Below, in pieces: positions 6,686-55,726 of a stretch of DNA of 64,000 nucleotides (position 1 is the stretch's first letter; every line of letters begins with the position of its first letter). Origin of the DNA: a virus (taxonomy: Duplodnaviria > Caudoviricetes); the IMG/VR virus record IMGVR_UViG_3300025316_001101; one strand, 5' to 3'. The notes beneath the pieces are model-generated. The model saw only the letters and a list, made by a program, of their open reading frames with translations, made no database searches and had not been told where the DNA came from. The translations under genes and the position numbers were made by a program.

Positions 6686-6689
6686 TCAG

Positions 6690-6763
6690 CCGGAAGTAAA
6701 GGATTTGAACCTCTATACCTACAACTTGCGTTGTAGTGCTCTAACCAATTGAGCTAACTTCCG
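6690..6763 (-). ncRNA. anticodon-less tRNA mimic (GCAA tetraloop)
   Basis: cloverleaf with anticodon arm CTACAAC-GCAA-GTTGTAG. Confidence 0.85.
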
Positions 6764-6835: not shown

Positions 6836-6839
6836 TCAG

Positions 6840-6913
6840 CCGAAGGTAAAGGACTCGAACCTCTATCCCTACAACTTGCGTTGTAGTGCTTTAGCCAATT
6901 AAGCTAACCTCCG
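6840..6913 (-). ncRNA. anticodon-less tRNA mimic (GCAA tetraloop), paralog of 6690-6763
   Basis: same CTACAAC-GCAA-GTTGTAG arm; compensatory changes in acceptor and D stems. Confidence 0.85.
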
Positions 6914-11659: not shown

Positions 11660-11778
11660 TGGCCAAGACAGGAATCGAACCTGTATACTCTAAGTTTGTC
11701 GCAATGGCTTACTATGAACAAAGCTCACGCTTTGGACCCCCAACTCCACCTAAAGTTTTACCATTAATATACTCGGCC
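11660..11778 (-). ncRNA. tRNA-like RNA with a ~54-nt insert in the anticodon loop
   Basis: acceptor GGCCGAG/CTTGGCC, T-arm ACAGG-TTCGATT-CCTGT, D-loop AATGGTA, stem TTAGG/CTTAG around the insert. Confidence 0.65.
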
Positions 11779-32390: not shown

Positions 32391-32422
32391 AAAAAGCCCA
32401 CGGAATAAATTCCGTGGGCTTT
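32391..32422. terminator. intrinsic terminator closing the tRNA operon
   Basis: AAAAAGCCCACGGAA-TAAA-TTCCGTGGGCTTT. Confidence 0.8.
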
Positions 32423-32495: not shown

Positions 32496-32499
32496 AAAG

Positions 32500-32584
32500 C
32501 TGTAGGGGTCAGAATCGAACTGACGTAGGCTTCCGCCACACGTGATTAACAGTCACGCCGAAGTACCAACACTTCATCCCTACA
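32500..32584 (-). tRNA. tRNA-Asn(GTT) with a long variable arm
   Basis: CGTGA-CT GTT AA-TCACG; extra arm GTGGC-GGAA-GCCTAC. Confidence 0.85.
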
Positions 32585-32589
32585 ATAAG

Positions 32590-32664
32590 CGCCCTCGGTG
32601 GGATTCGAACCCACGACCTTTAGCTTCGGAGGCTAACGCTCTCATTCCACTGAGCTACAAGGGC
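32590..32664 (-). tRNA. tRNA-Arg(CCG)
   Basis: canonical cloverleaf, TTAGC-CT CCG AA-GCTAA. Confidence 0.93.
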
Positions 32665-32749
32665 CAGCCGGATGCTCTACCATTGAGCCACACTGGAATG
32701 AATAAAAAAGCTCCAGCGGAAGGACTCGAACCTTCAACTGTCCGGTTAA
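32665..32749 (-). tRNA. circularly permuted tRNA-Asn(GTT): 3' half 32749-32711, 13-nt linker, 5' half 32697-32665
   Basis: 5' half TCCAGTGTGGCTCAATGGTAGAGCATCCGGCTG plus 3' half TTAACCGGACAGTTGAAGGTTCGAGTCCTTCCGCTGGAG make one complete cloverleaf with no gap or overlap. Confidence 0.85.
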
Positions 32750-32750
32750 G

Positions 32751-32823
32751 TACGCCCTCGGGGAGTCGAACCCCGAACCTCGACATTAAGAGTGTCTTGC
32801 TCTGCCAATTGAGCTAAGGACGC
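32751..32823 (-). tRNA. tRNA-Lys(CTT)
   Basis: GCGTCCT/AGGGCGT, loop CT CTT AA, A73. Confidence 0.9.
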
Positions 32824-32839
32824 ATATAAATTTTTCAAG

Positions 32840-32912
32840 CTATCCCGCAAGGTAACGCTCCTTGTCCCTCAGATTCAAATTCTGATGTGCAAAACTTCTA
32901 CACCACGGGATA
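32840..32912 (-). tRNA. tRNA-Gln(TTG), non-canonical T- and D-loops
   Basis: TATCCCG/CGGGATA; TCAGA-AT TTG AA-TCTGA; T-loop AGCGTTA. Confidence 0.75.
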
Positions 32913-32921
32913 TCATTCAAG

Positions 32922-32994
32922 CTGGGCAACTACGATTTGCACGTAGCACTCTAAGTTCAGAGCTTAGTGTGATTGCTGAATTCACCATTGCCCA
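32922..32994 (-). tRNA. tRNA-Gln(CTG), non-canonical loops
   Basis: TGGGCAA/TTGCCCA; CTAAG-CT CTG AA-CTTAG; T-loop TGCAAAT; D-loop lacks GG. Confidence 0.8.
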
Positions 32995-33009
32995 ATATAT
33001 TTTTTCAAG

Positions 33010-33136
33010 CTGCCGAGAGTCGATTCGAACGACTTCCTTTTGATTAACAGTCAATTGATGTAGTTCCAACTGCATGCGTTGCCGCCAAGGGTCGCTGAAA
33101 CTTTCATTTTTTATGCTACCATTACACCACTCGGCA
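33010..33136 (-). tRNA. tRNA-Asn(GTT) with a ~56-nt insert between D-arm and anticodon arm
   Basis: TGCCGAG/CTCGGCA; GTGT-AATGGTA-GCAT; TTGA-CT GTT AA-TCAA; AGTCG-TTCGAAT-CGACT. Confidence 0.75.
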
Positions 33137-33766: not shown

Positions 33767-33803
33767 AAAAAAGCCTCCCCCAGGCGTTGCCTGGGGGAGG
33801 CTC
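33767..33803 (-). terminator. intrinsic terminator
   Basis: GAGCCTCCCCCAGG-CAACG-CCTGGGGGAGGC followed by a U-tract on the minus strand. Confidence 0.85.
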
Positions 33804-33922
33804 AATCTTTGTACGGAATAGACCATACCCCAGGCTGCGCCCTGGAGTTGATTTCCAGAGCGGTTAAGGCTTCTGATTATTCCGTTGCTTACGAGTCATT
33901 GTTTTAATCCTCACTGTATCTA

Positions 33923-33954
33923 TATTATACGCTGAAATTTTCGTTTGTCAAGTC
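33923..33954 (-). promoter_or_regulatory. sigma70-type promoter TTGACA-N16-TATAAT (32-bp exact copy at 55695-55726)
   Basis: perfect -35 and -10 hexamers. Confidence 0.85.
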
Positions 33955-55582: not shown

Positions 55583-55675
55583 TGGTGGGGGCTGGGATCG
55601 AACCAGCGATCTTCAGGTTATTCTAGGGCTTGTCTGAGCCAAGAGCCTGACGAGATGCCTCTTCTCCACCCCACG
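55583..55675 (-). tRNA. initiator-type tRNA-fMet(CAT) with a 21-nt insert at anticodon position 34/35 (55622-55642)
   Basis: CGTGGGG start with C1:C72 mismatch; TCAGG-CTC[TTGGCTCAGACAAGCCCTAGA]ATAA-CCTGA. Confidence 0.8.
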
Positions 55676-55694
55676 TCATGTATTCTTATATATC

Positions 55695-55726
55695 TATTAT
55701 ACGCTGAAATTTTCGTTTGTCAAGTC
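55695..55726 (-). promoter_or_regulatory. sigma70-type promoter driving the 55.7-52.5 kb tRNA operon
   Basis: TTGACA-N16-TATAAT, identical to 33923-33954. Confidence 0.85.

Follow-up and report, generated by a model that had tools for sequence, protein, structure and literature searches.

The 64,000-nucleotide stretch of Caudoviricetes DNA analysed here (the window; from IMG/VR virus record IMGVR_UViG_3300025316_001101) carries three tRNA-Asn genes with the anticodon GUU, named e1, e2 and e3, within one tRNA operon on its minus strand. We consider it somewhat probable (roughly 0.55) that they represent three distinct RNA species from one attenuator-controlled operon, e1 being a decoder, e2 a permuted gene and e3 a Y RNA paralogue. 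A first-pass annotation of the window had described them as copies with a long variable arm (e1), in permuted order (e2) and with an inserted arm (e3), and ARAGORN, folds and sequence agreed with it on all three. Its statement that the window has no canonical tRNA-Asn was also confirmed by ARAGORN, and neither ARAGORN nor a scan for GUU-type stem-loops found one in the 259-kb record to which the window belongs, which is about 50% complete according to CheckV.

All three genes, e2 after joining of its halves, have the anticodon loop CUGUUAA and G73. The identity set of E. coli asparaginyl-tRNA synthetase (AsnRS) consists of the anticodon G34-U35-U36 and the discriminator G73, and by GUU and G73 each of e1, joined e2 and e3 belongs to tRNA-Asn. 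The Rfam tRNA model missed e1 and e2 and matched e3 partially (20.3 bits). Judged from sequence, the features common to the three genes are this kept identity set and predicted co-expression behind an Asn-sensing leader, and there is no shared disguise.

The operon starts from a consensus sigma-70 promoter (33924-33951, 12/12 matches with a 16-nt spacer), followed by an 11-codon leader peptide, MTRKQRNNQKP (33864-33899), which includes two Asn codons, AAU AAU. A strong terminator-like hairpin 3′ of the leader (33771-33803) was taken as the attenuator, and after it come tRNA-Lys(CUU), two small open reading frames (ORFs), e3, two odd tRNA-Gln genes, tRNA-Lys(CUU), e2, tRNA-Arg(CCG), e1 and tRNA-Gln(UUG), with an intrinsic terminator (32393-32422) closing the operon. 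Seven leader codons, AAG, CAA, CGG, AAU, AAU, CAG and AAG, are exactly those read by the five anticodon species of the operon. The operon is thus predicted to be switched by attenuation through a leader with Asn codons.

The extra-arm tRNA-Asn

The gene e1 (32499-32584) encodes an 86-nt tRNA-Asn(GUU) according to ARAGORN and folding, with G73 at 32500 and C74 at 32499. It has a 15-nt variable arm (32525-32539) with a stem of 3-5 bp and a GGAA cap, next to an anticodon stem assigned 6 bp by ARAGORN, and its minimum-energy fold is the extra-arm cloverleaf. In spite of this arm e1 is not a class II tRNA (Leu, Ser, Tyr), as it has GUU, G73 and U1-A72. Related phages were reached through their Ro60 proteins (42-55% identity), and two of them also carry an extra-arm tRNA-Asn(GUU), with an arm of 22 nt in G001 and of 17 nt with a GCAA cap in G004, whereas G003 has a canonical 74-nt tRNA-Asn. 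The arms of e1, G001 and G004 differ in sequence, each being a short capped hairpin.

In order to find further cases, viral contigs were scanned with a pattern of D loop, CUGUUAA, 19-31 nt and T loop. This pattern matched 114 stretches, and 101 of 115 candidates were tRNA-Asn of 79-92 nt according to ARAGORN. Among 83 distinct sequences G73 was present in all 83 and U1 in 79, 58% had a GNRA cap, and the arms were mostly of 3-4 bp. In comparison, 596 Gb of cellular genomes, scanned with this pattern, yielded 92 stretches with only 38 such tRNAs, about half of which lay in dense, viral-looking tRNA arrays. When the loop was swapped, the viral scan gave 26 validated matches for Lys(UUU) and none for Asp(GUC); these counts (Asn 101, Lys 26, Asp 0) are raw and not normalised to canonical gene numbers. 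By these sequence features, e1 is a member of a large tRNA-Asn class found almost only in phages, which keeps the AsnRS set of GUU, G73 and U1-A72. e1 is probably the working Asn decoder of the phage, and its charging with Asn is predicted. In a literature search outside of which many subscription papers lay, no description of an extra-arm tRNA-Asn was found, which is not a proof of novelty.

A long arm together with G73 might instead attract seryl-tRNA synthetase (SerRS), so that Asn codons would be partly read as Ser; bacterial SerRS does use the long variable arm and G73 rather than the anticodon. We give this idea almost no credence, because the arms of the class are short, the Asn set of U1-A72, GUU and G73 is kept in 79-83 of the 83 sequences, and the class is too widespread for harmful recoding.

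The permuted gene and its possible maturation

In e2 (32665-32749) the 3′ half of a tRNA precedes its 5′ half, in the order U35 to G73 (39 nt), a 13-nt linker, and position 1 to G34 (33 nt). The 3′ half (32711-32749) consists of U35-U36-A37-A38, the 3′ strand of the anticodon stem, variable loop, T arm, 3′ strand of the acceptor stem and G73, and the 5′ half (32665-32697) of the acceptor 5′ strand, D arm, 5′ strand of the anticodon stem and C32-U33-G34. The linker between them (32698-32710), C74 plus 12 U-rich nucleotides, closes the acceptor stem. In the minimum-energy fold, a cloverleaf, the acceptor end is closed and the anticodon loop open. Rejoining the halves in silico gave a 72-nt tRNA-Asn by ARAGORN; since the mature product would thus be ordinary, what is unusual about e2 is the gene rather than the RNA. 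Both flanks are high-scoring tRNAs found by ARAGORN and Rfam, tRNA-Lys(CUU) upstream (32750-32823, 60.9 bits), which ends in A73-C74 with C74 at 32750, and tRNA-Arg(CCG) downstream (32589-32664, 71.1 bits), with G1 at 32664. e2 abuts both of them directly, with spacers of 1 and 0 bases.

A scan of metagenomes gave a second permuted Asn gene (L260:3571-3653), on a contig which also has a tRNA-Gln of similarly odd form and TnpB genes. There, tRNA-Met (A73, C74) comes first, followed by the permuted Asn element and G1 of tRNA-Arg(CCU). The break lies between positions 34 and 35 in e2 and between 35 and 36 in L260. If C74 is left on the upstream tRNA, the overhangs are UUAA and CUG in e2 and UAA and CUGU in L260, both of which sum to CUGUUAA, whereas a hypothetical cut after N73 would give loops of 8 nt that differ between the two. 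All 21 of 21 pairs form in both genes, with both partners changed in five pairs and one partner in two. That the break moves while the loop sum stays constant is expected under selection on the joined loop and would be puzzling in an RNA left open. Across the genome C74 is present in 43 of 48 tRNAs and followed by U in 42 of those 43, while CCA is encoded in none of the 48; these numbers support a conserved C74, and the N73-C-U pattern suggests either a shared 3′-processing signal or a retained C74.

Based on this arrangement, maturation of e2 could proceed as follows. Processing of the tRNA-Lys 3′ end after C74 would set the 5′ end of e2, a 5′-phosphate on U35, and the RNase P cut at G1 of tRNA-Arg (32664) would make its 3′ end, a 3′-OH on G34. 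An ATP-dependent ligase, with the phage Rnl1 homologue as candidate, would seal the anticodon loop, the 13-nt acceptor linker would be opened by RNase P together with a 3′ nuclease, and CCA completion would yield a canonical 72-nt tRNA-Asn. The gene layout, the second example, the covariation and the ligase gene are observed, and from them we infer where the RNA is cut, that its ends are joined and in which order this happens. Precedents for other steps are published: YrlA of M. smegmatis, with a closed acceptor stem of 7 bp as in e2, is cleaved by RNase P and acquires CCA (PMC4201824), and an engineered circularly permuted tRNA was ligated to a circle (PMC10159003).

The ligase is probably the Rnl1-type enzyme encoded at G000:112970-114286, G000 being the 259-kb record. 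Its residues 92-391 matched T4 Rnl1 (2C5U) in phmmer with an E value of 1.7e-10, the motif I lysine (K-x-D-G) aligned with that of 2C5U, and the C-terminal tRNA-specificity domain (T4_Rnl1_C, PF20819) scored 27.4 bits against a cut-off of 27. By the motif I lysine and this domain, the protein belongs to the T4 Rnl1-type ligases. The 259 kb showed neither RtcB nor a class IIb aminoacyl-tRNA synthetase (AsnRS type), and Pnk was not found in the PF09511 and RtcB searches, beyond which no search for it was made. RNase P and RNase Z leave 3′-OH and 5′-phosphate ends, which ATP-dependent ligases accept but RtcB does not. The missing RtcB is therefore consistent with this route.

The nearest known counterparts occur in Cyanidioschyzon merolae and further algae, and one archaeon, Thermofilum pendens, is reported to have permuted tRNA genes too (reviews: PMC4090602, PMC6379350). 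As in the C. merolae type, the 3′ half of e2 lies upstream of its 5′ half on one strand with a short linker (as also in L260:3571-3653), the halves rebuild a full cloverleaf with an intact 7-nt anticodon loop, and the RNA can mature only if its ends are joined and RNase P and a 3′ nuclease open the acceptor linker. To our knowledge, permuted tRNA genes had been known only where an archaeal or eukaryal splicing endonuclease exists. The C. merolae type has a bulge-helix-bulge cut by this enzyme, but e2 has neither the motif nor the enzyme; its tRNA-Lys and tRNA-Arg flanks can pair with each other over 7 bp, without bulge-helix-bulge geometry. Further differences are that e2 is found in a bacteriophage, that its ends are set by neighbouring tRNA genes and that its likely ligase is of T4 Rnl1 type. 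The literature search gave no permuted tRNA gene in a phage or bacterium, which again does not prove novelty.

Further permuted genes of this kind were not found in viral contigs, where the pattern of the e2 3′ half hit ordinary tRNAs and att-site fragments only and the acceptor-junction scan hit nothing. The covariance model of e2 found only e2 itself in its own genome. A relaxed script scan of all gathered loci returned e2, L260 and one family with group I introns as the only permuted tRNAs. In this family (L259:1290-1640, also L245, L247, L248, L251, L255, L257 and L258) a permuted tRNA-Asn lies between swapped group I intron halves on bacterial metagenome contigs; L259 carries a tRNA-Ile and tRNA-Ala pair like that of bacterial rRNA operons, and L244 has a canonical copy upstream of the permuted one. 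The intron 3′ end with its terminal G precedes U36, an internal guide pairs with CUGU after U35, and the Rfam model Intron_gpI scored 42.7 and 23.8 bits on the two sides, both below the gathering score of 50. These genes resemble a permuted intron-exon arrangement of natural origin, from which splicing should yield a circular tRNA-Asn; their junction is at 35/36, the break site of L260, which counts in favour of joining in e2. No natural permuted group I intron around a tRNA came up in the same literature search.

e2 could also be an RNA that is never joined, i.e. a YrlA-type mimic without handle and a natural look-alike of nicked tRNA, serving as decoy, as substrate or competitor of a ligase, or as signal, for example to RNA-repair regulators. 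Like YrlA, e2 has the module order T arm, closed acceptor stem and D arm, and Rfam YrlA (RF02553) matched it with 32.8 bits (E 1.4e-4) against a gathering score of 69. In addition, the e2 model matched permuted modules of tRNA-like form inside handle-bearing Y RNAs of G003 and G004. Their closed acceptor stems pair perfectly, and one of these modules lies right beside the canonical tRNA-Asn of G003. Since permuted tRNA-Asn-like modules are thus cargo of YrlA-type Y RNAs in relatives, e2 could be such an unjoined mimic. The engineered circularly permuted tRNA mimics nicked tRNA and binds RtcR (PMC10159003). Unlike YrlA, however, e2 has no handle and keeps both parts of the anticodon loop. Its flanks, which the Rfam alignment offered as a Ro60 handle, were rejected as such since these bases belong to the functional tRNA-Lys and tRNA-Arg. 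e2 also keeps a perfect 5-bp anticodon stem, while the corresponding stems in the Y RNA modules of G003 and G004 are degenerate, and the overhangs of e2 and L260 give the exact 7-nt Asn loop despite the shifted break. An unjoined e2 is therefore possible but rather doubtful, and we prefer a gene whose halves are joined.

Some observations on tRNAs in the same sequences concern the break site and the sequence of e2. Two loci, 55583-55675 and L234:1441-1533 (both on the minus strand), are concerned by inserts: the initiator tRNA gene has a 21-nt hairpin insert after position 34, and thus at the junction where e2 is broken. tRNA-Gln(UUG) of G001 has a similar 21-nt insert with the first six bases identical, whose junction is ambiguous in a U run and compatible with 34/35. 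No homology was found between the e2 flanks and these inserts. Separately, canonical tRNA-Asn genes at least 80% like both e2 halves were found over 32665-32738 in runs X2-X5; they belong to abundant lake organisms with depths up to 165, which may be a clue to the host.

A candidate tRNA-Asn/Y RNA chimera

According to sequence, fold, handle alignment and covariance model, e3 (33010-33136) combines a tRNA-Asn with a Y RNA. It consists of a 7-bp acceptor stem, D arm, 58-nt insert, 4-bp anticodon hairpin (33040-33054), T arm and G73, after which C74-U is kept. The insert contains a handle of Ro60 type in hairpin form (33063-33101), with an 8-bp upper helix, the conserved internal loop, a 3-bp helix and a GCAA cap, whose upper helix and internal loop are the same as in the Y RNA array units. 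The phage has its own Ro60 ORF (G000:127091-128800) with TROVE and vWA_Ro60 domains. With the first tRNA-shaped Y RNA downstream of it (L001:2961-3089), the e3 insert shares identical blocks of 9, 5 and 15 bases, and the e3 covariance model matched this Y RNA from end to end (43.2 bits, E 2e-9), the sole large difference being the extra anticodon hairpin of e3. These similarities suggest that e3 is a Y RNA paralogue, with the Ro60 handle inserted between the D and anticodon arms of a tRNA-Asn body. On the phage Ro60, e3 would probably display an anticodon arm of Asn type together with an acceptor end bearing G73. A scan with the handle pattern gave chance matches in coding DNA only.

Compared with YrlA and other Y RNAs, e3 has a candidate Ro60-binding handle, which aligns with that of the phage Y RNA but differs from the array units in one hexamer (GCAUGC for GAAUGC). 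Unlike YrlA, it has free tRNA ends, so that the closed acceptor stem of the YrlA module order is absent, and it has an anticodon hairpin beside the handle. Both e2 and e3 differ from YrlA in that they sit inside a tRNA operon; they lie at about 162 kb of the record, about 33 kb from the Ro60 gene and not next to it.

Other tRNA-shaped genes were observed in the record. Two of them (6689-6763 and 6839-6913, minus strand) flank tRNA-Val(AAC) and have a 7-bp stem with a GCAA tetraloop and no anticodon, and in two others (11660-11778, minus strand, and G000:209999-210093) inserts of 29-60 nt replace the anticodon loop.

Several points, besides the permuted Y RNA modules of the relatives, weigh against three distinct RNA species as proposed here. 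The e3 handle has GCAUGC where the array units have an invariant GAAUGC, a change from A-U to C-G that is compensated in the helix, the anticodon stem of e3 has 4 weak pairs only, and the e3 model found no e3-like gene in four related huge-phage genomes. As for e2, cleavage after C74 rather than N73 is deduced from sequence patterns, and the case arguing that its ends are joined rests on two sequences plus analogy; PF09511 gave no match in the phage, but likewise none in control genomes. GNRA-capped extra arms were also seen on tRNA-Trp(CCA) and one tRNA-Lys(UUU) of the phage (52613-52696 and 54791-54872, minus strand), so that the arm is not private to Asn and its role need not concern Asn; a second, canonical tRNA-Lys(UUU) lies at 54474-54546. 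The runs containing the cluster sequence provided DNA contigs, with no RNA run among them. Finally, since the record is about 50% complete, absence of a canonical tRNA-Asn from the complete genome is not established.

Alternative causes, genomic setting and significance

AriB of the PARIS system targets the tRNAs Lys(UUU), Thr(UGU) and Asn(GUU) and cleaves them at 40/41 (PMC12409363), and T5 variants of these three tRNAs neutralise it (PMC11464382, PMC12409363). The first-pass annotation had correctly cited the rescue from PARIS by T5 tRNA-Lys, as well as the repair of PrrC-cut tRNA-Lys by T4 Pnk and Rnl1, and had proposed that sustained pressure from one Asn- or Q-tRNA-specific nuclease disguised all three genes. 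Like T5, the phage encodes copies of tRNAs targeted by a defence nuclease, Asn(GUU) included. The T5 variants have point substitutions at 39-41, whereas e1 and e3 keep U36-A-A-U-C-A41, the E. coli AriB motif, and e2 has C39 (a comparison made with the motif of E. coli); e1 adds its arm right after the stem that AriB cuts. By analogy, an arm leaving the core directly after position 43 could hinder an AriB-like enzyme, and most likely it would block a protein gripping the 3′ strand of the anticodon stem. Extra-arm variants in viral contigs fall mainly on Asn(GUU) and Lys(UUU), which are both AriB targets, and none was found for Asp(GUC). A nuclease of the AriB kind is a plausible hypothesis for the extra-arm class, and the proposed pressure by an Asn-specific nuclease is plausible for e1 only. 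The part concerning Q-tRNAs is unsupported, since Asp and His tRNAs of the phage are canonical, which makes a Q-family nuclease like colicin E5 unlikely.

That one host nuclease cutting tRNA-Asn or all Q-family tRNAs shaped all three architectures draws support from the same sources, as tRNA-Asn(GUU) is a proven AriB target and the T5 Asn variant contributes to escape (PMC12409363), the phage extra arms are enriched in AriB targets, and the leader peptide senses Asn codons. In addition, the phage encodes Rnl1 together with Ro60 and Y RNAs, a set tied to nicked-tRNA repair in Salmonella, where the rsr-yrlBA-rtcBA operon responds to nicked tRNA (PMC10159003). By analogy, this set may echo such a repair operon. 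As in the T4 and Salmonella systems, the phage has a ligase of a type, Rnl1, specialised for anticodon-loop breaks, and as in Salmonella, genes for RNA repair accompany those for Ro60 and Y RNAs; unlike in both, the break in e2 would be written into the gene and not made by a nuclease. We nevertheless regard a single nuclease as unlikely. CUGUUAA is unchanged in all three genes, whereas published escape alters the anticodon stem-loop, and the cut motif UAAUC-A is kept in e1 and e3. Moreover, e2 would mature to an ordinary tRNA-Asn, the insert of e3 has the features of a Ro60 handle, the Asp and His tRNAs are canonical, and extra arms are found on Trp and one Lys as well. The first interpretation was supported in part, but not in the common cause that it proposed.

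The window corresponds to the reverse strand of 131025-195024 of the record, which has about 50 tRNA genes and one tmRNA gene, every tRNA gene lying on the window minus strand. The runs containing phage sequence are freshwater and lake metagenomes, and the source is a giant or huge freshwater phage. The tRNA cluster was 100% identical in a contig of a different sample, and contigs of four more runs, belonging to three studies, cover it with no difference, for example a 685-nt contig spanning 32443-33127, so the cluster is real DNA and mis-assembly is excluded. blastn against phage GenBank records gave generic tRNA matches alone, and the neighbouring 150-aa protein, used as query for related loci, found no relatives.

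An HNH endonuclease gene adjoins the operon, tRNA arrays of huge phages rearrange often, and e3 has no homologue in relatives, so one might take e2 and e3 for functionless, decaying relics of tRNA-array recombination, with e1 alone mattering. This is very improbable, as the sequence is identical in at least 5 assemblies, all helices are intact, e2 and L260 differ by compensatory changes and have junctions with their flanking tRNAs that are exact to the base, and e3 retains G73, C74-U and the full handle.

Between e3 and tRNA-Lys, ARAGORN assigned two tRNA-Gln genes (CUG, UUG) with non-canonical D and T loops (32839-32994), which had no Rfam tRNA match at E<=1. The genes at 32839-32912 (UUG) and 32921-32994 (CUG) are without the D-loop GG and the T-loop TTC, and a comparable odd Gln gene was seen at L260:3420-3497. 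Upstream of the initiator-tRNA cluster (55714-55723, minus strand), the -35 box of the Asn operon reappears with the next four bases, and tRNA operons of the phage may share a promoter type.

The operon might also be a self-contained emergency circuit for decoding AAN and CAN codons, with a shielded e1, a 'pre-nicked' e2 and an e3 tethered to Ro60, an extension that we consider quite improbable, even more so than a single nuclease. In such a circuit, stalling at the Lys, Gln, Arg and Asn codons of the leader, e.g. after a nuclease depletes host tRNAs, would switch on the operon, e1 would deliver nuclease-shielded tRNA-Asn, e2 would become functional solely after the phage's own anticodon-loop ligase had acted, and e3, as a Ro60-tethered look-alike, would capture or monitor an Asn-specific factor. 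If true, e2 would be the first case in the bacterial world of a permuted tRNA gene that a repair ligase matures.

For e1, e2 and e3 as three distinct RNA species, the significance differs from gene to gene, while genes of all these kinds are missed or mislabelled when phage tRNAs are counted with standard tools. Extra-arm tRNA-Asn, frequent in viral contigs but scarce in cells, offers an idea of how phage tRNAs may resist nucleases gripping the anticodon stem. A phage permuted gene using its neighbours' processing and an Rnl1-type ligase would, if true, reveal a new route of maturation, in which a 'repair' ligase has a natural role of a new kind. The putative tRNA-Asn/Y RNA chimera would link Ro60 biology to one specific tRNA identity.

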